Shown: piece after piece, positions 14,359 through 39,634 of the stretch
Position numbering within the stretch: the first letter of the stretch is position 1
Layout: every line of letters begins with the position of its first letter
Origin: Oikopleura dioica
Taxonomy: Eukaryota > Animalia > Chordata
Length of the DNA: 64,000 nt
Assembly: GCA_907165135.1 (NCBI GenBank)
Contig: OU015566.1
Span: forward strand, 496,001-560,000
Direction: 5' to 3'
The notes under the pieces: generated by a model
Database searches by the model: none
What the model was told of the DNA's origin: nothing
Seen by the model: the letters and a program-made list of their open reading frames with translations, nothing else
Program-made: the position numbers and the translations under genes

Positions 14359-14370
14359 TGGTGACTGAAG
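14359..14370 (+). promoter_or_regulatory. Putative primer-binding site
   Basis: TGGTGACTGAAG directly follows the LTR. The first 7 nt (TGGTGAC) match the complement of a typical eukaryotic tRNA-Trp 3' end, but the match is short. Confidence 0.5.
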
Positions 14371-14443
14371 CTCTCTTGAGCTTGGTACGAACGTAAGTCC
14401 CCATATCGAACCTCGCCGCTAGGGCGTATCCCTGTAGCGCAGG

Positions 14444-17400
14444 ATGAATGCATCTCCTGGAATCTTCAGTGACTTTGTGCCGCACGGCTATTATGCAGGC
14501 GATAGTAAAATTCCACGCCTGGCTTATGTAGATTCGGACTCTCCGACAAGAGCCCGTAAAACAAAGGATTGGTTCGCCAATTTAAATCTATACCTTAACG
14601 CTCTTGCAAATAAGCAGCTGCCGAAATCTCCGATGGTAGGACACGCCGAGAAGCTTCCGATGCTTTGGGGCGAGAGTATCAGCGAATGAGGCCCGAATTG
14701 GTCGGGAAAACTCGGAATCCCTTCGAGTTTGGAGGAGTTCGGTAAATGGAAAGATAACAACATGTACGATGGCCTAAAATACCTCGACAATATGGAATTA
14801 TCACAAGACAAGAAATCCTTCGTAGCTTCTAAACTTTACGATGGAATACAAGGTCGAAGACCAAAAGAAATGGTTCATGGGAACCTTCTTCCCTTATCTG
14901 ACGGTCGATGAATTCCCCCGCGTCCTCAGACCAGACACAGTCGAACAGGGAGTAATCACGGAAAAGAGTCCGACCACAATCATGCGCGAAATGATACGAT
15001 GTCTGGGGAAGGTGATCCTCCAGGCAGTGGAGCCAAATTCAAAAGCCGCCGTAGCAAATGGCGGGTTCGTTAATTTGCGGAGTTATTTGAGGACTCAGTT
15101 GGAACAATATTGCGAGACAGCGGGGGACAATCCATTCCTACATAATATACAGATCTTGCGCACCTTCGGGTCAGGCAGGTTTAGCTACGCACGCTCAAGG
15201 AATAGCTTCGACAATGTGCGCTCCTGCCTGAAAGAGTTCGTGGTGAACCATTCGAAAGATGTCAGATTTCCGGAAGGAACAGTATTGGGGAACACCACGA
15301 GCGCAAGGAGGACGATGTACTCGAAGGGCGAGTTAAAAAAATGGTCGCCGTTCATGGACATGATGACAATGTACTTCGTGGTGAGCCACCTGGGAAAGTC
15401 ACGATTGGAGGAGATCGCCCATAAAATAGCCAAGAAGTCCGGTGTGGACTTTAGCGAAGTAGGCCTGCGCGATTTCCTCTGCAATAAGAAATTAATTTTC
15501 GATGAATCGGACAAAGTGTCGGGCGCAAAGGGACATTTAATGCTAGAACATATTCAAATGGCAGCGGATATGTCCGTTAACGGTGACGTAAGTAGAGAGC
15601 TAGAGAAAGTTTATTCGGATTGGAAAAAAGCATCAGTGAAGAAACAGAAATACGAGAAAGTAAACGCCTTAGAGGACTTCTGCAGCGACGGCGCGGACGT
15701 TGGCTCCGACGATAATGTAGACGAGGTCAATGCAGTTTTCGGTAAGAGGAACAGACCTTTGGACATAAAAACTGCACTAAATAACAATCGTTACATTGTG
15801 GATACGAGGACAGGGGAAGTCTACGCTAAAACAAGCCTGACGTTATCTCCCACTGACCTGAAAACGGCAAACGAACGGCTTTCAAGGAAAAGCTTTTATC
15901 TCTTTCCAAAGCCGAGGCAGCAGCGCAGCGGGGGCTCCAAGGGCCGTCTAGCGAAACAGGCCTTTAACAGGGCCATGAATAAGTCGCAGAAGGTAAGAGG
16001 TAAAAACCAAACTTACCAGGCTTTCGCGATCGACCAGGAGGACGGGAAGTCGTCGGCACTGGTTGCGTTGCTGGACGAGCTCATGCGATCGAGCATGGAA
16101 GACGAAGACGATAGTGACGGGGAGCTGGAAGAAGTGGACGTCATCAGCGAATACGACGAATGCGGCATTGGTAAGTCTCCTCGTCCAAAAAATGATGCTA
16201 AAAAAGAATTTAGAGTAGAAGAAGAAGTCGCCAGCGTGGACGCGGAAAGAAGACGTTTCGACATAAATTTCGGCGTCCGCAACTGTGATAACAAAATAGA
16301 AAGATTTAAAGTACTTATCGAATCAGGTGCGTCGGTATCCGTCGCCCCGGAAGCATTCGTTTCGTTGTTAATGCATAATTGCAGTGAGAACGTGGCATTG
16401 CAGGATTGCACGAGCTCCAGGGCAAAGGTAGCCAGCGGAGGCTACATGGAGTTCCAGAATTATAACGCTAATTTTGACATCGAGTTTAATAGCGACTTGA
16501 AACTTACCTTTAGGGATTGTAAAGTTTACGCAGGACCACAGAAGACAGTCATCCTCGGGGCTGACAGCTTTGAGCGTAACAGGATCGAGGTCAAGTTCGA
16601 TGAAAACGATAAGTTGGAGGTGTGCGTAAATGGTAAGGCTTTACGCAGGATTTGGGAAGACTGTGAGGATATAGCGATTAATGACCCTGAAATCATGTTG
16701 ACCGGTGAGAAGCTAGAAAGAACGCCTACCTTGCATGATCATCTGTACGAGAACAGCGAGTTCTTAGACGAAAGACCTTCAAGGGCCTACGACCCTGATG
16801 GAACGAGGACATGGGCTCGGAAGCTGGAGAGAATACACGCTGAAAATCGGAAAAAGAACTCGAGGTCGAAGGTGCAGGTCGATCCGCTGGGCGACACGTT
16901 GTCGTCAGAACAGGTGGACATCGTTAATAAGGTTCTTGACGAATTCGAGGCCATTTTCGAAGGCACGGTGGGCCACGTGGCCGACAAGGAGTTTGAGGTG
17001 CACGCTAGAATAGACCCCGGAAATTCGGACCGGAGCCCAAAGTCGGCGCCGATCGGCTACGGTAAGAACTTACCGGAGAGCGTCATGAAGGCAATCGAGG
17101 ACAAATTAGACCAGGAAGCCGCGGAAGGGGTGCTGACGGTTCTACCTAAGCATATGACAGCGGCTAATTATATGAGCTTTTTCGGTGTTTCTAAAAAAGG
17201 CCCAAATGGCGAAGCCAGCGTCGAACTCACAGCTTCCAACGTCAGAGTGGTCGGCGATTGCGCACGCAGCGGCATTAACGACAAGACCGATCACGTGGCG
17301 AGGCAGACCGATTCGATACAGAGGATCCTCCAGCTTGCGGCCCCATTTACGAAGAAAGGTTTTGTCGCACAGGTAGACATCGGGGCCATGTTTCACTGCT

Positions 17401-20400
17401 TCGAGATCGAAGAAGAGTTGTGAAAACACTTCGTCATTCTTCACCCCAAAGTCGGCGAGTTGGCGTACCGACGGCTACCGATGGGATGGGTGAGCAGTCC
17501 AGTGTTGGCGCGCGAGATGATCACTAGAATCATGTACGATCACTTGGAGTACACTTCGATCTACATGGACGATTTTTTAATAGTGGCGGATTCGTTTGAC
17601 CAGTTGATTGAGAGGGTGCGAAAGGTCTTTAAGACACTCGCTTACCGTAATCTTCGACTCAAAGGGTCGAAATGCGTGATCGGTTCCAAGGACATTGTGC
17701 TTCTCGGGAGACGGGTAAAAGACGGCAAGATTTGCATGTCGAACCACATCCTAAAAAAGGCGTAAGCGGAAAATCCAAGCACAATTAAGACGGTGAAACA
17801 ACTAAAACGCTATATCGGAATAATAAACTATCTATCGATCGGGCTCCCCGCCGGACAGAAATGATGTGGAAGCTGAACGAGGCAGCATCAGGGTCAAAGA
17901 AATTAAGCGATTACGTGGAGTGGACACCAGAGTTACGAGCCTGCTACGAGAAGCTGGCGGAGGCAATAAACTCGCAAATGGTGGACCTTTATCCAATTGA
18001 AAAGGATCTCGATACCTTCCTTGTGGTCGACAGCTCTAATCTGGGCTCCGGGGGCTACCTTTATCAAAAGAAAGGGGACCGAACGCAAATCGTGCGACTT
18101 TGGTCCAGAAAGAGAGGGGATTCCCAATTGAAAACGCAGTGGAGCTCCTGTTAGTTGGAACTGCACGGCATTTTAAGCGCGACATTATGTTTCTGCTGGG
18201 AGATCGACTTCGTGTCTAAACCGGTAGTGATCATTACCGACTCTTTGTCGGTGAAAAAATTATTCGATAGAGCCAGGCAGGGGAAAGAGCTCAGCCTGGA
18301 CAAACGGATAAACGACCAAATAGTGAAGCTCCTGAGCTTCGACGTGGAGATTGTCTACGAGAAAGGGGAATCAACCAGGGTGAGAAATGGCGGGGGATAT
18401 TCTTGGGATGTCGCGCGCGCGCCAAAAAAACCTCCCAGGGCGTGTGGGAGGTTCTCGGCTTCTCACAGAGCGCGAGGGAGCTCCAATCCAAACGAGCCAC
18501 AGTGAAGGCGCACTACTGCTCTCGCGCTGCGCGGGATATTTGAAAAGAATAAGCGAGCGCTATTATCTCGGTGGGTGCACACTCTGACTAAATGAGATCA
18601 GATGCTTGAATTAATAAAGAATGATTTGTTTTTAATTTTTTATTGTAGAAAATATTAAAAAAGATTTTTACTCTAGAGTCTAGAGTCAAGACCTATCAAT
18701 GATAATGATAACATTATGATAATGACGTCCTTAAATTTTTATCAATCAATAAAATCAATAATTCCGAAGTATATAATGAATTGAATTTACTTCTGGCAAA
18801 GTTAAATATGGGAGTCACTATGTTATCGTTATTAGAAAATTTGGAAAAAATCCCATGTGACCGATAGGGTCCCTAAGATCATCATCTTGAACAGATTATT
18901 AGTCATTTTATTTTAAGTTAGTTAAATTATTTTTTTCGAGTTGAACTAGTGGTGAGTCTTATTCGGTCAAGCGCCCGCCTGTTTTGAACTGCTCCCCCGG
19001 GCTCTGTGAGCTCACAGCGCGTGCGGGGATCTTGTTTTTGAGGCACCTCACAAAGTTTTCTGTGATAATGGCGCCACCTCCCACACGCCCTGGGAGGTTT
19101 TTTTTCCGCGCGCTGGAGATCCCGCGCGAACCACGCGCCATTTTTCACCCTGGAATCAACCCAAATTGATCTTGCGGACTTTATCTCGAGAACAGATTAC
19201 CTGCTGAAAGAATGTGACGCCAAGTGCGCGGTCTGCAACGTAATTGATAAGTACGAGGCGGTGAACGAGATCCTGGGGCCAACCCTCGATTTGACGAGCG
19301 AGGAGACACTACCCTCGGTTAAGTTCGACAGATTCGAAGAGGTTTTCGCTTTCAAAGACGAGGCCGCCCTGAGAGCGACAATGCCGTCCCTGCGACACAG
19401 GCAAGTGTCGAGCTGGAAAAGCCGGAAAGACGCCGTCGAGGCGATCGTGACGAGAGGAGCCGCAAAGAGATCAGCTAGGAAACCGAAAGATGACTCGCTG
19501 AATCGTCTCGCCGAACGAATCCTGGAGCACCAGGGGAGCAGCTTTCTGAAAGATCGAGGATTAATCAAGGAAATTCAAGAGTGGGACGAAGTCACGAGGT
19601 GAGTGATCGAGTCAAAGCGCAAAAATGGTCGAATGCCAGGTCCCAAGGACCGCAAGGCGGAATCGTTACGAGGGTCCACGTACCTGTGTTCGAACGGCAC
19701 GCCAGAGATTCTCCGGAAAAGAAAAATAATGATCGGAACGCGAATATGCGAACCAGTGGTAATCCCGGAAGCCCTGGGCGCATCTGTTGCGAAGGCGTTC
19801 CATCGAGGTAATTGCGGGACGATTTCGCGCCTAAAGAATCTGGTCAAGGTGGAAGTTTGGTTCGCAAAGCTAGACAACGTCGTATCTGAGGAGGTGAAAA
19901 ATTGCCTCTCCTGCACTTACCAGCGCAACAGGGGAAAGATAGTAACCGGGTCTAACGAGTATGACGACCAGGACGCTTCTTTCGTCGGAGAAGTGCTGCT
20001 GGCAGACGTAGTCACGAGGAACAGCCACAAACAGTACGAAGAGTCGACCATGAAGTTTTACGTGGTCTCATGCGTCTTGTCGGGTTTCACAAGAATTTAT
20101 CACGTCAAAAATTCGGAGAATAACGCAGCCAGGGGATCAGACATCTTGCTCAAAGCGATAGGGGATTTCGACCGAGGCCTACGCACGAATTCTAAAATAA
20201 AGGTGGTTATGGACGGGAGCTCGATAAATAAGGGAATTAAAAACGCGACTTCTGGAACGAAATAAACGTGGAATTCATCCTCCCAGAGTCGCCGAGCCCG
20301 TCGAAAAACTTCTTATCGCCCCTGGACAGCAGGATCGCAAAGTTGAGCCCGGTGATACTCGCAGAGATGTGGAATAAAACTGACCCGAGGCTGATGGAGC

Positions 20401-21044
20401 TCCTCGTGCCCGACAAGCTGAACAGGACGAAGGGCGCCCATGGATACTCCCCAATGGAAATCTGGACCGGCCGGTCCGCGGTCGACGGCAAAAGAATCGA
20501 TATTGATATCGAAAAGATAAGAAAATTCGTTAGTGATAGCCGCGAACGCGCAAGAAATGCGGCGCTACGCCTGAACCGCGACGGAAGGTACAGATTACCA
20601 CTAGTGATCAAGCCGTTTGAGGAAGGAGATAAGTACGGGGGAGAGATGGTTTCGCCAATAAAGAAAGGGGATTTCATCCTCATCGAGGGGAATTACGATA
20701 AGAATAAGATGCATCCGTGGTTTAAAGTTTGCGAAACGCCCGAAATACCGGGGGGGATTGACTGGCTCAACGGGCAGGTCGGCACCCAGAAAATGGGGCT
20801 TGAGAACAAGAAGTTCTACACGTGGAGCTTCAAGAGCATTAAAGCGATAGTGGACGGAGACAACATCAACAAAGACGACATGAACAACTTTACGAAAATG
20901 ATGAGATGCTTCCTGCTCCAGGTCCCCGAGTTGTCGCTGCCCGAAGTAATGAAGCCAAGAAGCATCGTCACAAAAATTTTTGGAAAAAGAAAGACGGATT
21001 CGTTCATAATGAAATTATATTCTAAAGAAAAGGCGATGCAGTAG
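14444..21044 (+). pseudogene. gag-pol: gag-pol polyprotein (left copy), disrupted
   Basis: Protease VLIESGASVS, RT QVDIGAMFH / LPMGW / YMDDFLI, RNase H VVDSS / LELHGI / ITDS, integrase H..CLSC, LADV, VMDG, GYSPMEIWTGR. In-frame stops end at 14689, 17423, 17765, 18154 and 19602; frameshifts lie near 14840, 17850 and 20240; a hAT insertion starts at 18376. Confidence 0.9.
18376..19152. mobile_element. Non-autonomous hAT-like element (777 bp) in the RNase H region of the left arm
   Basis: TIRs CAGGGTGAGAAATGGCG / CGCCATTTTTCACCCTG, 8-bp TSD GAATCAAC at 18368-18375 and 19153-19160. The empty site is visible in the right arm (~30170). Confidence 0.95.
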
Positions 21045-21056
21045 TTTTAGAGCAGG

Positions 21057-24000
21057 TTATTTGAATCGTTGCACTCGGCTAGGCACGGCGGCTGGTGGAG
21101 GAGGAAACTCGCCAGCAAGAGGTGGAGCAGGAGCAGGAGCAGTGACCAAGGAGGAAGTAGCGTCTTGAGCAACAGCAGTCTTAGCGGCGATGGACTAAAA
21201 GGCGAAATTAAAGCTGAAACGCTAGAGTTGAAATTACCGCAAGAGGAGTCGGGTTAAGCTTCTTCTTCTTGAAAGGGTTGAAGCGAGAAGCAGCCGATGA
21301 AGCGGGAGCGGACGTTACAATTTGCTCATCGAGAGCAGTAAGAGCGTGAGTGACAGCGGGCGAGGTATACGCAGCGGACGCCCCTTCTACTTGAGCTTTC
21401 TGCTGGGCTTCTTGCTGGGCGAGTCGCAAGACGGATAAATCGTGTTCAGCTCGCGCATCAGCCAATTTAGCCCGACGTTGAGCGTCTTGGCTTTTCAATT
21501 CCGCCTCCTGCTGCAGCTGCTGGAACTTTATTTGGTCGCGTTGAGCGCGACTCTGCTGCTGACGCATTCTCGCAGCGCTATTTTCACTTCCCTGAGGCAT
21601 TAAGGCCGTAAAGCACTCCAAACATTGCTCGCATGTCGCTGTTATTCGACCAAGCATGCAGTTGGCCACAAACAGGACGGCGGCGGCCGACCAAAACCTA
21701 GAATTACTTTACCAATACGGAAATTTTAATCGATATTTACCAAGTAATTGGCCGGGCGCCGCCGCCCCGCCAGTGATCTTCGGTAGTCGTGCGAGAAGCT
21801 GCACCATGCGAGGAATGACAAGCGCCTGGAGTTCGGTCGCGGAGAGGCTGATGTCGCGTTGATTGCGCAGTAGATCGACACTGGTGTCGTCGTTGTAGTG
21901 ATCGTCGGTGTACGCGGGAAGCTTGTCCTGATCGACCATGTAGTCGATAAAGCCGGAATCGTACATGGATCCACGCCGGGAGCGAGCAGGCACGAAAGCG
22001 GAGGTTGAATCGGAAGCGAAATCGTCAAGGTTGTCGACAAAGGAAGGTAATTTATCCTGGTCGACCATGTAATCGATGAAACCAGAGTCGTACATGGCCC
22101 CACGGCGGGAACGAGCAGGAACGAATTCGATCACCTCATCGTCGGTGGAGGAAGGAAGCTTGTCTTGATCGACCATGTAGTCGACAAATCCAGACTCGTA
22201 CATCGACCCACGCTTCGATCGAGCCGGAACGGAACCGTCTTCAGTCGGAGAAGTGAGAGACCGAGGTGTGCGGGTAAAAGGCAAAGTGAGGTTGTAAGAG
22301 GCGGCCAGCGGAGCGGTGAAGTTGTAGAGCTGGTCGTAAACGCTAGAGCTAAGATGGGTTACGTCGTAGTCGAAGTCGCCGGAGACAATGTAGCGGTCCA
22401 TGTCGAAAACGAGACCAGAAACCGATCTCCCAAAGTCGCGGAAGATCGATCGCAATACCTCTGCAGTTTCGGCGGAAAAATTTTAGCAACAAGATGATCG
22501 GCAGCGACTTCAACATGGCGGATTCTGAATTCTCCGGCGATCTCCATCAGAGCGGAACCGTTCATGTCCTGAAGCGCTTGAAGGTGCTCCTTGGGAATCG
22601 TAACGTTGAGTAGGCCGAGGTGCAAATCGTCGTCAGTGACCCAGCGGACTTCCGGCTCGACCAGCTCATCATCGGTAAATCGCTTGGCAAGCCAAGTCTA
22701 AAGCGAAAATTAATTTAACTCGTCGATCATTAATCTTTGACTAATTAAACCGTTAAAAACTTACGCAACCCTTGACGACCCAAAATACGAGCCGGCAGAA
22801 CCACACGATGAGCCTCCAGAGGCCTGTCCAGTAAAGGATGTAGGCGACGAAGGAGAGGAAGATGGTGAAGAGGAGAGCGTAGATAGCGTATTGAACACAG
22901 ACGATTTTGAGAGCGCTGGGGGCCGGACGACCTTCTGAACCGGCAGCCAAAACTCTTGACGACGGTAAGCCTTCGCCAGGCGCCGCTGAAGATGTCGACG
23001 CCTTCGGACATTGAAGAGGCGATGAAAACGGCGGGGTCCTGAATACTTGGGCATCTGGCCCCCATCGATGGCATCGGCTTGTTTCTCTAGGTCTGAAATG
23101 TATTTGCGGTCGTCGTCGGTAACAAATTTAGAGTACGCTGGTGGGGAATCCATTTTTGGATGTGATATAACGAAAGAATTAGCGTAATTATATAGCCAGA
23201 AAGGGAGGGCGCCCGCCCTCAAAGGTCAGCTGAAAGAAGGTTGAACAGAGGCGCTCAACAGCTGATGCGATAGAGTGATGTTGATTTTGGATAGCGGTGG
23301 CGCAGTAAGAGGCAATAAGGCGTTCGCACACAAGAAAACGTTGATGCGATTCAAGGTAAATAGTAAGAGCGGCGGCCAGCTGTTCGCCAAAGGATTCAAA
23401 AGAGCCGTCATCGCCGTCACGCACTTGACTCGTAACTCTAGGAGGAACGTCAAGGTTGAAATGAAGCTCGACAGGGAAATCCATCATCCGTATTGAGTCG
23501 GCAACAAAACTAAAAACGATTACGCGGAGCGAGCAAAATCTCTTACGCGAAAAAAGCTACAAAATCCTGATAAGGGCTCTCGGAGACCCAGGACAACAGC
23601 TGCGCGGGAGTGCGGTCCTCATAAACCTGCTTGCGAAGCTGATAAAGACGGTGTGGTACGTATAGGTCGTTATGAGGGCGAAAGGAACCAAGGAAAGCAA
23701 CATCGAATTCAGGGAAAAGTGGATAAACTCGCTCCAGCTTTACGCTAAAATAAGTAACGATATACCGAACCCAAATAAGACCGACCCAAATGGAGAATCG
23801 CCGAACGTTCTAGCATCCTGCAGCCATCGATATCGCCTTATATCACCAGTGGAAACAGGCTGCGAAAATCCCCTCGTCCGAGATTCGAAGTAGGAGGAAG
23901 ACGCGGTCGCTTCATAGCACTCATCGATGAACTCGAAAATCTTCTTTTCTTCAGAGGCAGCAGGAGAATCAGGAATGGGTTCGTAATCAGCGTCATCGTC

Positions 24001-24336
24001 GCTAGCAAGTCCGGCTTTGCAAGTGGATCCGGGGGGAGAAGCTTCCACCTTCGCCCTCTTGACATCAACAGGTTTGATGACGGTACCATCAAGGTCCGCC
24101 AATTTCCGCTTGTTTATCGTCGTTATTTGAGCCGCGCGTTTTGCAGCGACTAAGTAAATGTAAAAGCTAGTCGGCCAATAGAGGGATCAAGCAGCGCTAT
24201 TTACATGCATTTGCGGACAGATCCCAGTTAAACAGCGGAGACTTACCCAAAGATCTGCGAGCTCGTTTACGAACAGGCAATTTCGCGTTTTGGGAGATCT
24301 CAATCCCAATTTGCGCCATTACGGTATCGTCAAGCC
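21057..24336 (-). pseudogene. Left-arm copies of accessory genes A (5'-truncated), B (extra 1-nt frameshift) and C (intact frame)
   Basis: Mirror of 25000-28273. Gene A lacks its ATG here because that lies in the unique spacer. There is a 1-nt homopolymer loss near 22455, and the 7 nt missing from right-arm gene C are present. Confidence 0.75.
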
Positions 24337-24427
24337 TCTAGAGGCGTCGGTTGCCGGGCTGTCTTCAGTTTTTCGTTTCTTCGTTCGCGAAACCAAATTC
24401 CTAGCGATAGCGTTATTTTATTATTTT

Positions 24428-24844
24428 CTAGAGAGACTTTACCTCGAGCTGACTAGCGGCTTGGGCGAACGCGAATTGCGCTTTGTGCATTTCCAGTCGG
24501 AGGTTTTCAACCTTGTTTGCCAGGGATTCGTTGAACTTGAGCTGAATGTTGAAGAGCGCGTTAATTGCTTCTTGGCGGGCTCTTTCGTCGTCGGACTCGC
24601 AGTCTATGGTTGCCAGGTCCTTCGTCGAGAAGTCTTGCTTGCAGCCGGGGCACTTGTTCCGATCCCAGCTCATGCTATCTTCGAAACAAAGTCGGCAAAG
24701 GCGGAAGCAGTTGACGTCCTTTCCCAGCCCGCAGAAGTGAGCTCGTTCTGGATGCATGTCGAGGAACGGTTTGTTGCACTCTTCGCAAAAGTCCTTTTCT
24801 CTCAGGAGATTGATCCACGGTTCATTCATCGCCTTCCTCGGCAT
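24428..24844 (-). CDS. RING-finger-like protein with C-terminal coiled coil (in the 663-bp unique spacer)
   Basis: CEEC...C...CFRLCRLC-x11-CPGC, resembling C4C4 (NOT4-type) RING spacing, followed by a heptad-like region (ARQEAINALFNIQLKFNESLANKVENLRLEM). First in-frame ATG at 24844. Confidence 0.7.
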   Translation of the reverse strand: MPRKAMNEPWINLLREKDFCEECNKPFLDMHPERAHFCGLGKDVNCFRLCRLCFEDSMSWDRNKCPGCKQDFSTKDLATIDCESDDERARQEAINALFNIQLKFNESLANKVENLRLEMHKAQFAFAQAASQLEVKSL

Positions 24845-24956: not shown

Positions 24957-26148
24957 ATGTCGACTACCGCTCAAACTCGTAGCCGTTCGAAGCGAAAACG
25001 GCTTGACGATACCGTAATGGCGCAAATTGGGATTGAGATCTCCCAAAACGCGAAATTGCCTGTTCGTAAACGAGCTCGCAGATCTTTGGGTAAGTCTCCG
25101 CTGTTTAACTGGGATCTGTCCGCAAATGCATGTAAATAGCGCTGCTTGATCCCTCTATTGGCCGACTAGCTTTTACATTTACTTAGTCGCTGCAAAACGC
25201 GCGGCTCAAATAACGACGATAAACAAGCGGAAATTGGCGGACCTTGATGGTACCGTCATCAAACCTGTTGATGTCAAGAGGGCGAAGGTGGAAGCTTCTC
25301 CCCCCGGATCCACTTGCAAAGCCGGACTTGCTAGCGACGATGACGCTGATTACGAACCCATTCCTGATTCTCCTGCTGCCTCTGAAGAAAAGAAGATTTT
25401 CGAGTTCATCGATGAGTGCTATGAAGCGACCGCGTCTTCCTCCTACTTCGAATCTCGGACGAGGGGATTTTCGCAGCCTGTTTCCACTGGTGATATAAGG
25501 CGATATCGATGGCTGCAGGATGCTAGAACGTTCGGCGATTCTCCATTTGGGTCGGTCTTATTTGGGTTCGGTATATCGTTACTTATTTTAGCGTAAAGCT
25601 GGAGCGAGTTTATCCACTTTTCCCTGAATTCGATGTTGCTTTCCTTGGTTCCTTTCGCCCTCATAACGACCTATACGTACCACACCGTCTTTATCAGCTT
25701 CGCAAGCAGGTTTATGAGGACCGCACTCCCGCGCAGCTGTTGTCCTGGGTCTCCGAGAGCCCTTATCAGGATTTTGTAGCTTTTTTCGCGTAAGAGATTT
25801 TGCTCGCTCCGCGTAATCGTTTTTAGTTTTGTTGCCGACTCAATACGGATGATGGATTTCCCTGTCGAGCTTCATTTCAACCTTGACGTTCCTCCTAGAG
25901 TTACGAGTCAAGTGCGTGACGGCGATGACGGCTCTTTTGAATCCTTTGGCGAACAGCTGGCCGCCGCTCTTACTATTTACCTTGAATCGCATCAACGTTT
26001 TCTTGTGTGCGAACGCCTTATTGCCTCTTACTGCGCCACCGCTATCCAAAATCAACATCACTCTATCGCATCAGCTGTTGAGCGCCTCTGTTCAACCTTC
26101 TTTCAGCTGACCTTTGAGGGCGGGCGCCCTCCCTTTCTGGCTATATAA
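24957..26148 (+). CDS. Accessory gene A: 4 exons, predicted 338-aa basic/NLS-rich protein of unknown family
   Basis: Exons 24957-25089, 25187-25550, 25592-25789 and 25827-26148. Introns are GTAAGT..TTAG (97 nt), GTCGGT..TTAG (41 nt) and GTAAGA..TTAG (37 nt), and all phases match to give one open frame of 1017 nt. Contains KRKR, KRARR and KRAK motifs. Confidence 0.75.
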
Positions 26149-26182
26149 TTACGCTAATTCTTTCGTTATATCACATCCAAAA

Positions 26183-27695
26183 ATGGATTCCCCACCAGCG
26201 TACTCTAAATTTGTTACCGACGACGACCGCAAATACATTTCAGACCTAGAGAAACAAGCCGATGCCATCGATGGGGGCCAGATGCCCAAGTATTCAGGAC
26301 CCCGCCGTTTTCATCGCCTCTTCAATGTCCGAAGGCGTCGACATCTTCAGCGGCGCCTGGCGAAGGCTTACCGTCGTCAAGAGTTTTGGCTGCCGGTTCA
26401 GAAGGTCGTCCGGCCCCCAGCGCTCTCAAAATCGTCTGTGTTCAATACGCTATCTACGCTCTCCTCTTCACCATCTTCCTCTCCTTCGTCGCCTACATCC
26501 TTTACTGGACAGGCCTCTGGAGGCTCATCGTGTGGTTCTGCCGGCTCGTATTTTGGGTCGTCAAGGGTTGCGTAAGTTTTTAACGGTTTAATTAGTCAAA
26601 GATTAATGATCGACGAGTTAAATTAATTTTCGCTTTAGACTTGGCTTGCCAAGCGATTTACCGATGATGAGCTGGTCGAGCCGGAAGTCCGCTGGGTCAC
26701 TGACGACGATTTGCACCTCGGCCTACTCAACGTTACGATTCCCAAGGAGCACCTTCAAGCGCTTCAGGACATGAACGGTTCCGCTCTGATGGAGATCGCC
26801 GGAGAATTCAGAATCCGCCATGTTGAAGTCGCTGCCGATCATCTTGTTGCTAAAATTTTTTCCGCCGAAACTGCAGAGGTATTGCGATCGATCTTCCGCG
26901 ACTTTGGGAGATCGGTTTCTGGTCTCGTTTTCGACATGGACCGCTACATTGTCTCCGGCGACTTCGACTACGACGTAACCCATCTTAGCTCTAGCGTTTA
27001 CGACCAGCTCTACAACTTCACCGCTCCGCTGGCCGCCTCTTACAACCTCACTTTGCCTTTTACCCGCACACCTCGGTCTCTCACTTCTCCGACTGAAGAC
27101 GGTTCCGTTCCGGCTCGATCGAAGCGTGGGTCGATGTACGAGTCTGGATTTGTCGACTACATGGTCGATCAAGACAAGCTTCCTTCCTCCACCGACGATG
27201 AGGTGATCGAATTCGTTCCTGCTCGTTCCCGCCGTGGGGCCATGTACGACTCTGGTTTCATCGATTACATGGTCGACCAGGATAAATTACCTTCCTTTGT
27301 CGACAACCTTGACGATTTCGCTTCCGATTCAACCTCCGCTTTCGTGCCTGCTCGCTCCCGGCGTGGATCCATGTACGATTCCGGCTTTATCGACTACATG
27401 GTCGATCAGGACAAGCTTCCCGCGTACACCGACGATCACTACAACGACGACACCAGTGTCGATCTACTGCGCAATCAACGCGACATCAGCCTCTCCGCGA
27501 CCGAACTCCAGGCGCTTGTCATTCCTCGCATGGTGCAGCTTCTCGCACGACTACCGAAGATCACTGGCGGGGCGGCGGCGCCCGGCCAATTACTTGGTAA
27601 ATATCGATTAAAATTTCCGTATTGGTAAAGTAATTCTAGGTTTTGGTCGGCCGCCGCCGTCCTGTTTGTGGCCAACTGCATGCTTGGTCGAATAA
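26183..27695 (+). CDS. Accessory gene B: membrane glycoprotein (Env-like) with triple furin-site/peptide repeat
   Basis: N-terminal MDSPPAY and a hydrophobic segment YAIYALLFTIFLSFVAYILYWTGLW. A phase-0 intron at 26572-26638 (GTAAGT..CTTTAG) joins it in frame to the 26711 ORF, which has sequons NVT, NGS, NFT, NLT and R-x-x-R sites. A 43-nt intron at 27597-27639 removes the apparent stop. The frame is unresolved at ~26290-26420. Confidence 0.65.
27107..27423 (+). repeat. Three tandem coding repeats (V/F)PARS(K/R)RG(S/A)MY(E/D)SGF(V/I)DYMVDQDKLP
   Basis: Near-identical peptide in three units, while third codon positions differ (TCT GGA TTT / TCT GGT TTC / TCC GGC TTT). Confidence 0.9.
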
Positions 27696-27736
27696 CAGCG
27701 ACATGCGAGCAATGTTTGGAGTGCTTTACGGCCTTA

Positions 27737-28273
27737 ATGCCTCAGGGAAGTGAAAATAGCGCTGCGAGAATGCGTCAGCAGCAGAGTCGCGCTCAACGCG
27801 ACCAAATAAAGTTCCAGCAGCTGCAGCAGGAGGCGGAATTGAAAAGCCAAGACGCTCAACGTAATTGGCTGATGCGCGAGCTGAACACGATTTATCCGTC
27901 TTGCGACTCGCCCAGCAAGAAGCCCAGCAGAAAGCTCAAGTAGAAGGGGCGTCCGCTGCGTATACCTCGCCCGCTGTCACTCACGCTCTTACTGCTCTCG
28001 ATGAGCAAATTGTAACGTCCGCTCCCGCTTCATCGGCTGCTTCTCGCTTCAACCCTTTCAAGAAGAAGAAGCTTAACCCGACTCCTCTTGCGGTAATTTC
28101 AACTCTAGCGTTTCAGCTTTAATTTCGCCTTTTAGTCCATCGCCGCTAAGACTGCTGTTGCTCAAGACGCTACTTCCTCCTTGGTCACTGCTCCTGCTCC
28201 TGCTCCACCTCTTGCTGGCGAGTTTCCTCCTCCACCAGCCGCCGTGCCTAGCCGAGTGCAACGATTCAAATAA
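27737..28273 (+). CDS. Accessory gene C: Gln/Ala-rich coiled-coil protein with Pro-rich tail (7-nt deletion in this copy)
   Basis: MPQGSENSAARMRQQQSRAQRDQIKFQQLQQEAEL.... A phase-0 43-nt intron at 28093-28135 (GTAATT..TTTTAG) continues into SIAAKTAVAQ...EFPPPPAAVPSRVQRFK*. The stop lies 12 nt from the convergent pol stop. Confidence 0.65.
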
Positions 28274-28285
28274 CCTGCTCTAAAA

Positions 28286-31200
28286 CTACTGCATCGCCTT
28301 TTCTTTAGAATATAATTTCATTATGAACGAATCCGTCTTTCTTTTTCCAAAAATTTTTGTGACGATGCTTCTTGGCTTCATTACTTCGGGCAGCGACAAC
28401 TCGGGGACCTGGAGCAGGAAGCATCTCATCATTTTCGTAAAGTTGTTCATGTCGTCTTTGTTGATGTTGTCTCCGTCCACTATCGCTTTAATGCTCTTGA
28501 AGCTCCACGTGTAGAACTTCTTGTTCTCAAGCCCCATTTTCTGGGTGCCGACCTGCCCGTTGAGCCAGTCAATCCCCCCCGGTATTTCGGGCGTTTCGCA
28601 AACTTTAAACCACGGATGCATCTTATTCTTATCGTAATTCCCCTCGATGAGGATGAAATCCCCTTTCTTTATTGGCGAAACCATCTCTCCCCCGTACTTA
28701 TCTCCTTCCTCAAACGGCTTGATCACTAGTGGTAATCTGTACCTTCCGTCGCGGTTCAGGCGTAGCGCCGCATTTCTTGCGCGTTCGCGGCTATCACTAA
28801 CGAATTTTCTTATCTTTTCGATATCAATATCGATTCTTTTGCCGTCGACCGCGGACCGGCCGGTCCAGATTTCCATTGGGGAGTATCCATGGGCGCCCTT
28901 CGTCCTGTTCAGCTTGTCGGGCACGAGGAGCTCCATCAGCCTCGGGTCAGTTTTATTCCACATCTCTGCGAGTATCACCGGGCTCAACTTTGCGATCCTG
29001 CTGTCCAGGGGCGATAAGAAGTTTTTCGACGGGCTCGGCGACTCTGGGAGGATGAATTCCACGTTTATTTCGTTCCAGAAGTCGCGTTTTTTAATTCCCT
29101 TATTTATCGAGCTCCCGTCCATAACCACCTTTATTTTAGAATTCGTGCGTAGGCCTCGGTCGAAATCCCCTATCGCTTTGAGCAAGATGTCTGATCCCCT
29201 GGCTGCGTTATTCTCCGAATTTTTGACGTGATAAATTCTTGTGAAACCCGACAAGACGCATGAGACCACGTAAAACTTCATGGTCGACTCTTCGTACTGT
29301 TTGTGGCTGTTCCTCGTGACTACGTCTGCCAGCAGCACTTCTCCGACGAAAGAAGCGTCCTGGTCGTCATACTCGTTAGACCCGGTTACTATCTTTCCCC
29401 TGTTGCGCTGGTAAGTGCAGGAGAGGCAATTTTTCACCTCCTCAGATACGACGTTGTCTAGCTTTGCGAACCAAACTTCCACCTTGACCAGATTCTTTAG
29501 GCGCGAAATCGTCCCGCAATTACCTCGATGGAACGCCTTCGCAACAGATGCGCCCAGGGCTTCCGGGATTACCACTGGTTCGCATATTCGCGTTCCGATC
29601 ATTATTTTTCTTTTCCGGAGAATCTCTGGCGTGCCGTTCGAACACAGGTACGTGGACCCTCGTAACGATTCCGCCTTGCGGTCCTTGGGACCTGGCATTC
29701 GACCATTTTTGCGCTTTGACTCGATCACTCACCTCGTGACTTCGTCCCACTCTTGAATTTCCTTGATTAATCCTCGATCTTTCAGAAAGCTGCTCCCCTG
29801 GTGCTCCAGGATTCGTTCGGCGAGACGATTCAGCGAGTCATCTTTCGGTTTCCTAGCTGATCTCTTTGCGGCTCCTCTCGTCACGATCGCCTCGACGGCG
29901 TCTTTCCGGCTTTTCCAGCTCGACACTTGCCTGTGTCGCAGGGACGGCATTGTCGCTCTCAGGGCGGCCTCGTCTTTGAAAGCGAAAACCTCTTCGAATC
30001 TGTCGAACTTAACCGAGGGTAGTGTCTCCTCGCTCGTCAAATCGAGGGTTGGCCCCAGGATCTCGTTCACCGCCTCGTACTTATCAATTACGTTGCAGAC
30101 CGCGCACTTGGCGTCACATTCTTTCAGCAGGTAATCTGTTCTCGAGATAAAGTCCGCAAGATCAATTTGGGTTGATTCCCCTTTCTCGTAGACAATCTCC
30201 ACGTCGAAGCTCAGGAGCTTCACTATTTGGTCGTTTATCCGTTTGTCCAGGCTGAGCTCTTTCCCCTGCCTGGCTCTATCGAATAATTTTTTCACCGACA
30301 AAGAGTCGGTAATGATCACTACCGGTTTAGACACGAAGTCGATCTCCCAGCAGAAACATAATGTCGCGCTTAAAATGCCGTGCAGTTCCAACTAACAGGA
30401 GCTCCACTGCGTTTTCAATTGGGAATCCCCTCTCTTTCTGGACCAAAGTCGCACGATTTGCGTTCGGTCCCCTTTCTTTTGATAAAGGTAGCCCCCGGAG
30501 CCCAGATTAGAGCTGTCGACCACAAGGAAGGTATCGAGATCCTTTTCAATTGGATAAAGGTCCACCATTTGCGAGTTTATTGCCTCCGCCAGCTTCTCGT
30601 AGCAGGCTCGTAACTCTGGTGTCCACTCCACGTAATCGCTTAATTTCTTTGACCCTGATGCTGCCTCGTTCAGCTTCCACATCATTTCTGTCCGGCGGGG
30701 GAGCCCGATCGATAGATAGTTTATTATTCCGATATAGCGTTTTAGTTGTTTCACCGTCTTAATTGTGCTTGGATTTTCCGCTTACGCCTTTTTTAGGATG
30801 TGGTTCGACATGCAAATCTTGCCGTCTTTTACCCGTCTCCCGAGAAGCACAATGTCCTTGGAACCGATCACGCATTTCGACCCTTTGAGTCGAAGATTAC
30901 GGTAAGCGAGTGTCTTAAAGACCTTTCGCACCCTCTCAATCAACTGGTCAAACGAATCCGCCACTATTAAAAAATCGTCCATGTAGATCGAAGTGTACTC
31001 CAAGTGATCGTACATGATTCTAGTGATCATCTCGCGCGCCAACACTGGACTGCTCACCCATCCCATCGGTAGCCGTCGGTACGCCAACTCGCCGACTTTG
31101 GGGTGAAGAATGACGAAGTGTTTTCACAACTCTTCTTCGATCTCGAAGCAGTGAAACATGGCCCCGATGTCTACCTGTGCGACAAAACCTTTCTTCGTAA

Positions 31201-32082
31201 ATGGGGCCGCAAGCTGGAGGATCCTCTGTATCGAATCGGTCTGCCTCGCCACGTGATCGGTCTTGTCGTTAATGCCGCTGCGTGCGCAATCGCCGACCAC
31301 TCTGACGTTGGAAGCTGTGAGTTCGACGCTGGCTTCGCCATTTGGGCCTTTTTTAGAAACACCGAAAAAGCTCATATAATTAGCCGCTGTCATATGCTTA
31401 GGTAGAACCGTCAGCACCCCTTCCGCGGCTTCCTGGTCTAATTTGTCCTCGATTGCCTTCATGACGCTCTCCGGTAAGTTCTTACCGTAGCCGATCGGCG
31501 CCGACTTTGGGCTCCGGTCCGAATTTCCGGGGTCTATTCTAGCGTGCACCTCAAACTCCTTGTCGGCCACGTGGCCCACCGTGCCTTCGAAAATGGCCTC
31601 GAATTCGTCAAGAACCTTATTAACGATGTCCACCTGTTCTGACGACAACGTGTCGCCCAGCGGATCGACCTGCACCTTCGACCTCGAGTTCTTTTTCCGA
31701 TTTTCAGCGTGTATTCTCTCCAGCTTCCGAGCCCATGTCCTCGTTCCATCAGGGTCGTAGGCCCTTGAAGGTCTTTCGTCTAAGAACTCGCTGTTCTCGT
31801 ACAGATGATCATGCAAGGTAGGCGTTCTTTCTAGCTTCTCACCGGTCAACATGATTTCAGGGTCATTAATCGCTATATCCTCACAGTCTTCCCAAATCCT
31901 GCGTAAAGCCTTACCATTTACGCACACCTCCAACTTATCGTTTTCATCGAACTTGACCTCGATCCTGTTACGCTCAAAGCTGTCAGCCCCGAGGATGACT
32001 GTCTTCTGTGGTCCTGCGTAAACTTTACAATCCCTAAAGGTAAGTTTCAAGTCGCTATTAAACTCGATGTCAAAATTAGCGT
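28286..32082 (-). pseudogene. pol: Partial pol (RT-RH-IN), inverted copy
   Basis: One continuous frame over 3.8 kb, interrupted only by four in-frame stops (31124 TGA, 30782 TAA, 30392 TAG, 29729 TGA). Begins downstream of the protease active site. Confidence 0.9.
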
Positions 32083-32149
32083 CGGTGCCCTGATCAGAAA
32101 TAGCCAAAACTAACGCAAGTCTGAGATCTAAAAAAACAACCGTTTAGAA

Positions 32150-32434: not shown

Positions 32435-34144
32435 AAAACAGTGCAGTAACTAAAAGTAGCGTTCAAAACTCTGATCGAGGCACGCAAGTCGAAGAGCCAG
32501 CTGGACTCGGATTTGGCAGCGGAGAAGCTGAAGTCGTTGCTCAAAAGTCAGGTGAGTCGGGGAAATCAGGACGGTAAGGATATCGCAAGTCCTCGGCACC
32601 GGTGTAGACGGGGCGACGAGCATTCTCTCCTTCGGCAAGTTCCTCCTCGATAGGGATGACGGCTAAGGCACCAACTTGGGGAAGACCATCCGGGTAGAGC
32701 TGCCGATAAATCTCGCCCAGCCAAAGTTCGCCTAAGCCTTCGGGGAGAAGGTTGACCATCCCTAGAATACGTATAAAAGAGTAAAATCCCGGGAAACTTA
32801 CGATTACGCCGACGATCATGATGGACGTAAAAGCAATCCATCGGAGCGGCTTCCAAACGGCCACGCCACGGATCCGCAACTACCTGTCGGAAAGCCGGGG
32901 GGAAAACAGAAGCTCGGCTAATCATGTCAGCGAACAAGGGATAAAAACCGTACTTCAGGACCAGGCAACAGCGATGCAGATAAGAGAGCTGGTCTCGTCC
33001 TAAATGAAGCTGATGAGTCTCTCGAGCAACACGAGGAGTTTTGGCCACTAGCAGAAAGCACAGGTACTTACGGATCCCAAAAAGGATGAGGCTCGTCGGA
33101 TAGATAGAGATACATCGCCAGAAAAAGCAACAAATCTAGATCGTAACCGGGCCAAACTTCCTCGGTGGCACGTAACTGCATCGCCACTAAGAATAGATTT
33201 TAGGCTCGATCATCATCCTGGATTCAACCGTAGGGTCGGCCAGCGAATTCCAAGTCGAGGAGACGAACAACTCGGCGGGGATCGGCGAAAATCTGGATAG
33301 CGCGGAGCAGACGTTGCAGAAAGGTAAAATCCTCGGAAAGCACGGCATGTGGCACAATCAACGTGTTGGCTTCCTCGCAATTGAAGTCAGGCTCCGTGAG
33401 TTTCTAAAGAAAAATTTTAGCCGAGCCTCGGGAAGAATAATCACCTGTACGAAACGAAAACACCATAGATATTGAAACGGCGAATCATCAAAGCCGTAAG
33501 TGCTCCAAGAACCGTCAATTGTTTGCGACTCGTGCTCGTAATGACCTGAAGTTCAGCTACAATTACGCCCGTATCACTACCCTCACCAGTCTGGTCCAAG
33601 AGCTCGACAGCCTCCTTTGTCGTCATCGTCAGGTATTTCAGACTTCGGTTGAGACAGGACCTATCAAAAAATTCAAGATCGACGCGAAGAAAACAATCTA
33701 CCTTTTCGCGTGAACCAACATGTCCGAATTAGCATCGAATTCCTCAGCCGCAGCATCGACGGCCGCGCAGTAACTTCGGAACATATCGCGGAAGTCCACG
33801 CTGTTGTGACGAGAATATGGTGGCACGACAATTCTCACGAGCCCAGCCCGAGCCTTGCCAGTAGAGAAATCTACGGTCCCCAGTTAAACCTTCCCGTCAC
33901 TTCGCAATTAGTTATCCCTACCGTCAAAATACGCATTAGCATAAAATTAACCCCTAAAGAGGTCGGAAGGCCGAATCTCCTTGTTCGCGAAAGCTTCCTG
34001 TAATAGATTAAAGTTTACGAATCTGGCATGTTGCCCCTGGAATCGCTGAGCTCGTCGCATGTGAGGAGACGAAAGCGAATACTCGAGGCGGCTGAAATCG
34101 AATCCATGTTCTCTAGCTCGAGCATTCTCGGACAGTTTTCGCAT
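32431..34144 (-). CDS. Accessory gene D: multi-intron antisense gene of unknown family (some lesions)
   Basis: GT-AG introns at 33661-33701, 33546-33586, 33404-33444 (41 nt each) and 33187-33228 (42 nt) give a continuous frame ...MFRSYCAAV...KEAVELLDQTGHYEHESQTIDGSWSTYGFDDSPFQYLWCFRFVQKLTEPDF...WPGYDLDLLLFLAMYLYLSDEPHPFWDP. There is a further intron at 32762-32801. The 32900-33070 region and both termini are uncertain. Confidence 0.7.
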
Positions 34145-34203: not shown

Positions 34204-35287
34204 ATGGTAGAGGTGGAGAAAATCGGAGAAAAGCTGAAGAAAACGTCTCTACTTGAAGCGGCTGGCCGAGAGGAAAATGCGGACGAAGAGTCCTCCGTGC
34301 GAGCCAATCAGGGCTCAAGCTCGGGCGCTTCAAAGTTCCTCCCGTCTTTTCTCGAGATTGGTGAAGCTGAACCGGAAACTAAATTAGCCTCGAAAGAGCA
34401 ACTGGCCGAAATCGAGCAACACGCCAGCGACTCCAAGGACGACGCGATCATGGCCGCGTTGAAAAATGGGGTGAGGCCCGGGACGTTCATGCGGACGTTC
34501 AAAGGTCTCTCGTTCGTCGCGAAAGTATCAAAGGACCCGGTCTGCACGAACTTCCTGACAGATTTGGGGAACTGGATGACAAAAATGTCGGAGATCGATA
34601 GAGGACTCTACGCCTTACCCGAAAATGTAAGTAAAACAAAATTATCTCTGACTTACTCCCGGATTAAAGCGAGTGCATCAGCCGCTGTCCCCGCCATTGG
34701 TGTGTATGACGGTCTGGGCGCAGAAAGAGCTGTACAAGCTATGCACGGAGGCGCCCAAACCACTAGCGGGCTTCATCCTCCATGTTTGGCACAAACACGG
34801 AACAGGATTGACGGGCGATAACGGCGCTCGAGTATCCCTTCAAGAGGTCGATTCAATGAAGGACGTGGAGCGTTTCGTCGAAGAGCAAACATCGGAGACG
34901 ACTTGCGCAAATATCGCGGAAGGAGCGGTGGACGCGTTCAACCGCTTTTGCGCGGAATTCGACATCTCCAGCAAGACTCCAGAGTTCCCCGAGTGCGGAT
35001 CGAACGAAGAAATAGTCGAGTGGGCCAGAACAGCGAAACGCATCTTCGACGAAAATAACGCTAAAATGAAAGGTTACAAAGAGTCGCTGATGACAATGTC
35101 CCGCTGGACACTGCAGGGAACGTACAACTACCTAACGCACGAGTCCGCGCTCAAGAAAATCGCAGCTGTCGCCAACTTCGACCACTTCCAAGGCAATACC
35201 CTAGTCACAGTCTTGGATAACGGCAAGCTGCGAGGCTTCACGATGAATAACGGGACAGTACAGAAAAGTAAGCCCCGGTTGATATAA
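34204..35287 (+). CDS. Accessory gene E: 2 exons, predicted 346-aa protein of unknown family, on the element's sense strand
   Basis: Exons 34204-34626 and 34670-35287. A 43-nt phase-0 intron GTAAGT..TTAAAG fuses the two overlapping ORF-track ORFs into one frame. Confidence 0.75.
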
Positions 35288-35501
35288 ATTTTTCACTCAC
35301 GAAATGTTCAGCTCAGCGGCTACCAGGATTCATGCGCGGGTGGAAGGTACTCACAGGTGGACGATCGAACGTGGATTACCGGAAAGGAGGATTCGTGTCG
35401 GAATCAGGAAACGGATTCAAACGCCCGAATCCAAGCGAGAAGTACGACGAGCCCAGAGCGAAACGACGATGGGGAAATGGCTACGGCCAGCGCCGGTGGA
35501 A

Positions 35502-35833
35502 TATGCGATCCCGGGCCCAGAGGACCAAGGATCGAGTCGAGGGAAGCCGAGAGCTTGCCCTCCGGAAAGGCCATTACCTGGCTGACCTTCGCTGCGCCCG
35601 AGCAACGCTCAGACGCCGCAGAGGTCCAGCGAGGTAGGGGAGAGAAATCAGCCCAACCTTTTCGAAAAATAAGAACGTGTCCCCAACCTAACCCATCTTC
35701 AGGTTCGTCTTGGTTCAAGCCTACGCCGGAGCAGCACGAATTTCATCTTCCCTGTCTTTCGGTATCTGTGCAAATAAAAGGACGCAAGTCCGGACCAAAT
35801 ACAAACGAGTGTTAGATTGTGGAACGCATAACG
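35502..35833 (+). repeat. 3' LTR
   Basis: Direct repeat of 14027-14358 with 2 mismatches. GC-rich sequence at 35290-35501 may be an upstream LTR portion absent on the left. Confidence 0.85.
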
Positions 35834-35851: not shown

Positions 35852-36227
35852 TTAAGGGGGAGGTCGACGAGAATCGGGATTTCCGTGACCAAAAATGCGG
35901 AGAAACCCGATTAGATAGGAAAATTCTGACTTTTCGGATTGAAAGAAAAGGGTTTGAAAAATTAACCGGCGAAAAGCAGAAAAAAAATTTTTTTGAAAAA
36001 TTTTTCAAAAATTAAGGTTGAAGTGGGGGTGTCTCGTGACCAAAAAATCTCGAAAATCGAGCTTTTTTTTCTTCATCCAATATAATTAATAAATAGTTTA
36101 GACCCTAAAAAATTAGCCGGCGATCAAAAAATTAAGGGTTACTTTCATAAAAAATTTTTTCTTATTGATTAAAAATATTCGATTTTTGTCAAAATCGACA
36201 TTTTTACCCATTTTTTCATGGAAATTT
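35852..36227. mobile_element. Truncated copy of the TTAA MITE at 46713-47369
   Basis: TTAAGGGGGAGGTCGACGAGAATCGGGATTTCCGTGACC... matches the reverse complement of ~47005-47373. Confidence 0.8.
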
Positions 36228-36790
36228 CTGCTAAAATCACAAAGACAATAACTTATTCCCAAAAAATGGGCTCAACAGGGAAAGAACTAAAAAATCTACC
36301 TGATTTTCTTGAAAGGGAGAAGCAACATCCTCATTCTCCGGCGCTTCCGACCTGAGCAAATCTGTATCAATTCCTGATTTGTCGATCTTTCCAAAAACGA
36401 CTGCCCGATCGTAACAGAAGTTTCCTTGTTGTTGCCCGAACAATTGAGGAAAATCAACTTGAATATAAATTTTTAGTTCATAGATAAAATATGCAAGAAC
36501 TTATTTCTTTCTTTGTATGCCCAATAACACTAGAATCTTTGCCACATTCTTTGGAAGGTACTGATTTATATATTCTCTTTGTTAACTTCACCGCAAAAAC
36601 TCACAAACAAGCCGTCGATAGAGCAAGTTTTGAAAGAGCTGCTTCGCTCTATTATGCAGGTGGTTTTCTGAGAGTTTGTTGCTCTTGGAATTCTTTTGGC
36701 GACCTAATAATATTTTTATTTGAAAAACTGATCAAAAAAAATTTTTTCAATTTCTAGAAGTAATTTTTAAATGTTGTGGAAACGGTAAAA

Positions 36791-39010: not shown

Positions 39011-39493
39011 AGTAACAAGGACAAAATATTCTCATTTTGAATTTTTTTCGCTCAAGCTCATAATATATCAATAAACTTTGTTAATCATCATTCTTTCCAA
39101 ATATTTCGAAAATTTATTGAAAATATAAAACAGTGGATTCTCTTTGGTGATTTCAGGCATCACCGCCAGTAGGTGTTTTATTTGCAAGATCATCGAAAAG
39201 AATGCAGTTTGGATCACGCTCGAGATAAACTTTCAAACAAGACGTTGTCCAGCCGAAGGAACTGATTCCCTCGAGAAAGTAGAACGCGTCTTTGGTCAAA
39301 AAAGTAGTTGCACAAGCGATTCGATAAGGAAGGTTCGGAAGCGGTTGAAAACGATTCGCAGACTCGCGGAGGTTGCTTGTTTCGATTTGATCTGATGGCT
39401 TTCCTTCTGAAAAGGGATCAGAGTAAATAATACCGGGTTGATATACCGTTGTTGATTCCGCCCCTTTTCGATGAAAAACCTCTCTAGAATATA

Positions 39494-39634
39494 CCGCGGT
39501 TGGCATTTCTGACTGACTAATTTTATTTTTCTAGATAGGTTACAAGGGCCTAGTTAGCACAAACGCCCTATGTTTTAGCGTTGCGAAATGTGCTAATGAA
39601 ATGTGCTTTAGTCAGTCAGAATTGCCAACCGCGG
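39494..39634. repeat. Short TIR element
   Basis: CCGCGGTTGGCATTTCTGACTGACTAA ... TTAGTCAGTCAGAATTGCCAACCGCGG. Confidence 0.6.

Follow-up and report, generated by a model that had tools for sequence, protein, structure and literature searches.

The extra ORFs of LTR retrotransposons known so far are represented by Env, small FAST-like proteins, captured enzymes and antisense ORFs of unknown function. In Oikopleura dioica, Tor elements (Tor3a/3b/4b) encode an Env, a membrane glycoprotein with a furin site (PMC4402516). The gene described here shares with Tor env the host species, the element class and the predicted type of product, as well as the position of an extra gene 3′ of pol; in some Tor groups this gene is driven by an internal promoter (PMC4402516). 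Tor env genes are read in the sense direction, and their products have a C-terminal anchor, seven conserved cysteines and the motifs F-x-G and N-[LV]-G (PMC4402516), whereas the present gene is antisense and its product has a predicted N-terminal anchor, a Cys-free exon 2 and three repeated cleavage units. Expression of Tor elements is reported from sites beside the germline (PMC4402516); the accessible text of the O. dioica assembly paper (PMC8008620) does not mention them.

In bdelloids, ORF3 of Vesta4 (PMC5408684) is likewise an orphan third ORF of a Ty3/gypsy element, whose product has N-terminal hydrophobic regions followed by RXXR. This protein, however, is 220–230 residues long and has two membrane regions with Cys between them, a single RXXR and a coiled coil; no peptide repeats are reported in the available part of its description (PMC5408684). 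The sORF2/FAST-like products of insect LTR retrotransposons (PMC11952523) are Env-independent Ty3/gypsy membrane proteins with polybasic and amphipathic segments beside the helix, as in the present protein, but they comprise 63–107 residues, carry a myristoylation motif, are N-out and are encoded in the sense orientation. Errantivirus F- and gB-type Env (PMC13524379), as well as FAST-like proteins and bdelloid ORF3s, differ from it in size, orientation or architecture. Extra ORFs in antisense orientation have been described for plant elements (PMC7264820; PMC11963269). Position, orientation and the lack of database homologues are common to these ORFs and the present gene, and that of Grande has its own upstream promoter; in contrast, the plant ORFs are nuclear or of unknown function, whereas here an animal element carries a multi-gene cassette with predicted introns and a putative membrane protein.

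Some proteins of viruses are comparable in part. Virokinin, a bioactive peptide, is shed by furin from the F protein of bovine RSV (PMC7552771). Furin-type freeing of a short peptide from a membrane precursor is the shared feature, but virokinin is one peptide within a class I fusogen and has no sequence similarity to the repeats described below. HIV-1 Vpu, which is membrane-anchored, poxvirus A49 and rotavirus NSP1 are accessory proteins with a β-TrCP-degron-like motif (PMC10487276). Each of them has a single motif, whereas the present protein has three, whose cytosolic position is putative.

The window (the whole stretch of 64,000 nt of O. dioica DNA that was analyzed) contains an unusually built orphan accessory gene (26183–27695, + strand; hereafter the membrane gene), real and subject to selection, in a dead, locally duplicated element. 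The host element is a Ty3/gypsy LTR retrotransposon of O. dioica, because 340-nt direct repeats, a TGG stretch and RT/RNase H/integrase-like ORFs in the Ty3/gypsy order are present. The 5′ LTR (14019–14358, +) is followed by a TGG-starting stretch resembling a primer-binding site, and the 3′ LTR (35494–35833, +), which differs from it at 4 positions in 340 nt, is preceded by a purine-rich tract near 35468–35480. The LTRs end in CGTTA...TAACG and not in TG...CA (14015–14019, 14354–14358, 35829–35833). Other LTR variants, in which a 101-nt stretch is replaced, occur in contigs of the runs X1 and X2. Pfam matches follow the order RVT_1 (E 2e-12), RT_RNaseH_2 (E 5e-8) and Integrase_H2C2 (E 0.04); a protease-like motif in pol was read by eye. 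At the likely termini of the element the match amounts to just 3 bases inside a tandemly repeated site (4–5-base target-site duplication in Tor). GC content is 48–55% across window bases 14,000–35,800 vs. about 35% in the flanks; that of the membrane gene (50–54%) is element-like, unlike the 35% of the flanks. Integrase relatives are represented by 3 proteins with 52–56% identity and without usable genomic context, and no named Tor sequence is among them. A diverged sister of the element, with about 80% similarity over parts of pol, is found as a 12.1-kb contig of X2, which has no match to the membrane gene at 80% DNA identity.

Bases 16465–24336 recur inverted at 25000–32082. This inverted duplication is probably real, since contigs of two DNA runs stop at the boundaries of its arms, the repeated part has about twofold depth (222 vs. 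98; 262 vs. 128), and, at a 7-base difference between the arms, the contigs of each run show one of the two versions, although the assembly may have been built from these very DNA runs. One junction of the duplication lies inside a 12-base palindrome, and the same 8-mer occurs at both junctions (24334–24351, 32079–32086), which is compatible with template switching.

The gag-pol of the element is dead, because gag has one stop, pol has four in-frame stops common to both arms, and one arm carries a 779-nt insertion. Gag-pol copy A (14826–21044, +) is broken by this insertion (18375–19153), and pol copy B (28286–32082, −) retains part of the protease, RT, RNase H and integrase. The insertion, present in copy A alone, is MITE-like: its inverted ends, 78 nt each, are 82% alike and enclose an AT-rich core. 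Introns at the four pol stops, suggested by donor-like sequence, were rejected because in-frame enzyme motifs follow. The five in-frame stops of gag-pol (14359–21044, 28286–32082) compare with roughly one expected from the LTR divergence of 4/340; the copy may have been mobilized in trans after it had died, or homogenization of its LTRs may have occurred. At the gag-pol rate (5 stops in about 2,200 codons) about one stop would be expected in 467 codons, so the stop-free state of the membrane gene is no sign of its retention or of its outliving pol.

The membrane gene is the third of four tightly spaced ORFs opposite pol, located between a divergent RING-like ORF and the integrase end. Gene 1 of this cassette (24957–25596, +) encodes a basic, NLS-like product, has a predicted intron (25090–25186) and gave no Pfam match. 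Gene 2 (25849–26148, +; 99 codons) contains TATATAAT at 26142–26149 and ends 34 nt before the membrane gene. Gene 4 (27737–28273, +), Gln/Ala/Pro-rich in its product, has a predicted intron (28093–28135), and 12 nt separate its stop from that of integrase on the opposite strand. The RING-finger-like ORF (24428–24844, −; Pfam zf-RING_4, E 1.2e-4, below the curated cut-off) diverges from the cassette, from which it is separated by about 110 nt, and its product has a coiled-coil-like tail. Elsewhere inside the LTR pair, a second antisense ORF (32544–32879, −) has a hydrophobic segment and a 40–46-nt intron candidate (32762–32807); it showed no Pfam match and no similarity to the membrane gene. 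Two overlapping orphan ORFs are located on the gag strand (34205–35287, +), and a 43-nt GT-AG stretch near 34627, a sense-strand intron candidate, would join them.

If both predicted introns are spliced, the membrane gene encodes a protein of about 467 residues. The sequence-only reading of the locus had described an antisense, intron-containing gene, and the orientation and the intron candidate were borne out: the gene lies on the strand opposite pol, and the GT-AG candidate is found where proposed, at 26572–26638. The gene and its twin correspond to the public gene models g50 and g49 (chromosome 1, OKI2018_I69). The first part of exon 1 (26183–26413, +) begins with the ATG at 26183 and encodes the N-terminal 77 residues, as the codon score suggests; the protein starts with MDSPP, PPAY (residues 4–7) overlaps YSKF, and a polybasic stretch (19 K/R) follows. 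A break within a homopolymer run (26414–26415, read as X) separates this part from the frame of the membrane anchor (26416–26571, +). The break is probably an assembly error, since two deep contig sets, X1 and X2 (depth 222 and 262), have a one-base indel relative to the window at this point, while the X3 contig, of low depth (11) and gapped at 4 places across the gene, matches the window. The codon score favors the ATG frame before the break and the anchor frame behind it. Predicted intron 1 (26572–26638, +; 67 nt, GTAAGT...TTTAG, 27% GC, phase 0) is present in both public models, predicted intron 2 (27597–27639, +; 43 nt, 26% GC) in one of the two, g49. Given splicing of intron 2, the last exon (27640–27695, +) would end with the stop at 27695. 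In the opposite arm of the duplication, the twin copy of the gene (21642–23153, −) shares the break near 26414 and has an extra one-base frameshift near 22481.

Homologues of exon 2 were absent among 5,594 proteins of near length; 7,609 longer proteins yielded the gene model of the locus itself, and 1.84 billion representative proteins yielded 3 matches, one of which was again the locus. The other two, a nematode low-complexity protein and a fungal WD40 protein, are unrelated and were dropped as repeat artefacts. No related locus was confirmed in viral contigs (2 and 26 pattern matches) or in metagenome contigs (56 and 85 pattern matches), and Pfam and PDB sequence searches with parts of the gene at E<=10 gave weak chance matches. 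AlphaFold2 run without an alignment produced models with pLDDT of 43 and 40, and with these as queries Foldseek found no match at E<=0.001 in either library; the fold searches are uninformative because the models are poor. A degenerate KH domain seen by eye at 26699–26920 is not supported, as no KH match was obtained at E<=10 and its GxxG loop reads DMNG. In five of 20 runs (X5, X8, X11, X12, X14), which are RNA or guessed to be RNA, the gene is uncovered, and the host flank is barely covered too. Comparison between copies gives nothing in the window, because its two copies are near-identical halves of one local duplication. Among the titles and abstracts searched, with subscription papers outside the search, none dealt with a retrotransposon-encoded precursor of repeated furin-cut peptides or with an Oikopleura antisense cassette.

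The single long hydrophobic segment proposed from the sequence is indeed hydrophobic over residues 84–131, yet it is better described as two helices, an apolar one (about 84–108) and a strongly amphipathic, Trp-rich one (111–135), both modeled by AlphaFold2 with pLDDT 77–81. The 30 residues before the anchor contain 8 K/R vs. 1 D/E, and the 83-residue N-terminus has no signal-like apolar stretch; the 15 residues flanking the first helix on each side are about balanced in charge. The second helix is basic, with a narrow stripe of R/K every 7 residues and two Cys. Arginine or lysine at heptad spacing together with Cys is a habit of cytosolic juxtamembrane helices. On the hydropathy scales used, this helix is marginal as a second membrane pass, and such a pass would place the tail in the cytosol. 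Charge and sequons are in favor of a single N-in/C-out anchor, while the second helix leaves a possible hairpin.

The segment behind the anchor (26639–27106, +; 156 residues) has all four of its Asn in sequons. These are the four sequons reported earlier, NVT, NGS, NFT and NLT, with codons at 26729, 26774, 27014 and 27044. Throughout exon 2, sequons contain 4 of 7 Asn, compared with 13 of 120 when ten other ORFs of the element are taken together (Fisher P=0.006; shuffle P=0.009); for the region between the anchor and the first repeat, picked after the fact, the fraction is 4/4 (P=5e-4). A luminal tail with furin release is favored because of this sequon excess behind the anchor. The 319 residues of exon 2 include no cysteines, which is unusual for a secreted domain. 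By the author's judgement, the chances of a luminal tail are evenly balanced, and a cytosolic tail is rather doubtful.

Three repeat cores of 26 codons each are located at 27107–27184, 27215–27292 and 27344–27421 (all +). As the sequence-only reading had noted, they are headed by RSKR, RSRR and RSRR, respectively, and continue with G(S/A)MY(E/D)SGF(V/I)DYMVDQDKLP, which includes ESGFVD in the first and DSGFID in the other two. The fourth proposed site, RNQR (27470–27481, +), exists in the minimal R-x-x-R form and would end the third peptide. It had further been argued that synonymous differences between the repeats imply selection on the peptide, and the counts agree: variable columns of the cores fall on 18 third, 4 first and 1 second codon positions, and the pairwise third-position excess has binomial P of 2e-5, 2e-4 and 7e-8. 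Between the repeats dN is 0.03–0.12 and dS ranges from 1.2 to saturated (26-codon cores). These values indicate strong purifying selection on all three repeats of 26 residues. The repeats are thus old, and their protein sequence was kept constant.

Each conserved unit opens with the furin motif in an identical position, small residues come directly after it, and the linkers are acidic and variable, an arrangement consistent with a peptide precursor. A single R-x-[KR]-R arises in 12% of exon shuffles, and the other ORFs of the element (2,644 residues) contain none; the three motifs count as one and not as independent evidence, because one motif was duplicated. If all four R-x-x-R sites were cut, the products would be 36, 43 and 39 residues long with a net charge of −4 to −6; in each, the first 19 residues are constant and the rest is variable and acidic. 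Prohormones also contain tandem peptides with acidic spacers; unlike the membrane protein, they have a cleaved signal peptide and basic sites usually on both sides. The peptides may bear a short likeness to CCK (through DYM) or to the fusion peptide of influenza (through GFI followed by an acidic residue), which was given no weight.

The favored reading, to which about an even chance is given, is that of an accessory gene of the Ty3/gypsy element whose product would be a type II membrane glycoprotein cut by furin into three near-identical acidic peptides. In the earlier proposal of a type II precursor releasing peptides of about 35–45 residues, the element context, the antisense orientation, the repeats and the purifying selection on them are demonstrated and a luminal, glycosylated, furin-cut tail is supported, while topology and cleavage stay at the level of what the sequence suggests. 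The antisense cassette would be transcribed against pol from an internal promoter, and two introns would be spliced from the membrane-gene part of its transcript. Such introns could persist because the genomic RNA, being of the opposite strand, would not be spliced at them, so they would not be lost on reverse transcription; antisense placement would thus be a simple reason for the persistence of spliced genes in a retroelement. The protein would then enter the secretory path with its N-terminus in the cytosol and its tail in the lumen, where it would be glycosylated, and host furin could cut the three R-x-[KR]-R motifs and the one R-x-x-R to free the three peptides. The best guess for the weakest step is that the freed 19-residue conserved N-terminus acts as an extracellular ligand or decoy for a host protein. 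PPxY and YxxF motifs have established roles, and cytosolic PPAY/YSKF is predicted to send the membrane stub to turnover. The product would serve as a helper of the element and not as a fusogen.

A different function could be realized if both ends of the protein were cytosolic, the anchor being a hairpin or a helix with an in-plane helix. The protein would then be a membrane-tethered ubiquitin-ligase adaptor or decoy like Vpu or A49, with β-TrCP-degron-like repeats, basic motifs as kinase sites and PPAY binding Nedd4-type ligases. This reading, considered unlikely, remains because of the degron-like hexamer in each repeat and the basic amphipathic helix after the anchor. All three hexamers (ESGFVD, DSGFID, DSGFID) conform to [DE][SD]G-hydrophobic-x-[SDE] and are intermediate between the canonical degron DpSGxxpS and DDGFVD of CDC25B, which does not require phosphorylation (PMC9606124, PMC10487276). 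The hexamer is absent from the same 2,644 residues of other ORFs, and its chance of 0.1–0.4% per unit makes it rarer than the furin motif (1–2%), both having been spotted after the fact. The heptad R/K and two Cys of the second helix, a pattern of cytosolic juxtamembrane helices, and the RING-like ORF of the element also agree with this function. However, the sequon excess (P 0.006–0.009) would have to be chance, all 26 residues are conserved, far beyond the need of a six-residue degron, repeat 2 has Ala in place of the Ser of the RRxS-type kinase motif but keeps the arginines, and the motif was picked post hoc among many possible short motifs. An unusual Env, the other identity suggested for the product, or a fusogen for cell-to-cell spread with the peptides behind the furin sites acting on membranes, is improbable. 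Envelope proteins commonly have an anchor, sequons, furin motifs and PPxY, no further ORF of the element was recognized as Env-like, and Tor elements of the same host have a furin-cut Env, in some cases from an internal promoter (PMC4402516). Against this, the sole hydrophobic segment (residues 84–131 of about 467) is not the C-terminal transmembrane domain of Tor3b/4b, and F-x-G, N-[LV]-G and the seven cysteines were not found in the membrane protein, with 0 Cys in exon 2. Acidic and not apolar residues follow the cleavage motifs, a crude heptad scan finds nothing behind the sites, and the acidic peptides would leave the membrane in a type II topology. Tor env and sORF2/FAST-like genes are described as sense in the available accounts, and the latter encode proteins of 63–200 residues with an N-myristoylation motif, vs. 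an antisense gene, 467 residues and an MDSPP start here. By the features tested, the membrane gene does not belong to the Tor Env, class I fusogen or FAST families.

The cassette could also be cargo, an operon-like group of captured host genes with introns, in which selection on the repeats dates from life in the host. The introns are short, AT-rich and host-like, and intergenic gaps of 34 and about 41 nt are within the <=60 bp used to predict O. dioica operons (PMC7986045). Such an origin is quite improbable, as no host paralogue was found at E<=0.001 among proteins including O. dioica gene models, the exon base composition is element-like and not flank-like, and no AG for a trans-splice acceptor exists between cassette gene 2 and the membrane gene. 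Finally, the coding reading could be partly an artefact if the break near 26414 were real and the N-terminus or splicing differed from the model. The X3 contig matches the window, the break occurs in both copies of the gene, an allele can be concealed by collapsed contigs, the public gene models begin elsewhere, and a 44-nt GT-AG stretch (26200–26243) could link the ATG to the anchor frame without PPAY. Nevertheless, the indel in two deep contig sets and the codon score on both sides of the break make this very improbable, and the repeats are real whichever model holds.

If the favored reading of a furin-cut precursor is true, shedding of repeated peptides from a membrane protein would add secreted signaling to the abilities of LTR retrotransposons. 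A broader proposal, possible but tentative, is a tunicate lineage of LTR retrotransposons carrying an operon-like, spliced antisense cassette with a prohormone-like precursor, which would shed tandem signaling or decoy peptides to condition host tissue as a transposon-encoded peptide hormone. If the protein is instead a ligase adaptor or decoy, a retrotransposon would act on the host ubiquitin system like complex viruses, with a triple degron decoy, PPxY and a RING-like gene nearby. The weight of either is limited by the single locus and the dead element.

Several features were observed in the host DNA outside the LTR pair. A high-copy host repeat adjoins the 3′ LTR (35852–36257), and its inverted copy, 93% alike, is located 11 kb off (46972–47373). 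Diverged copies of a host gene family occur in the flanks (1800–4700, 10300–11200, 38400–39500, 49400–50400), with no Pfam match for the three pieces tested. A LITAF-like host gene (47314–47907, −) encodes a protein with an N-terminal PPAY, and a BTB-domain host gene with an S4-like segment (56600–58500, −) probably encodes a voltage-gated potassium channel.
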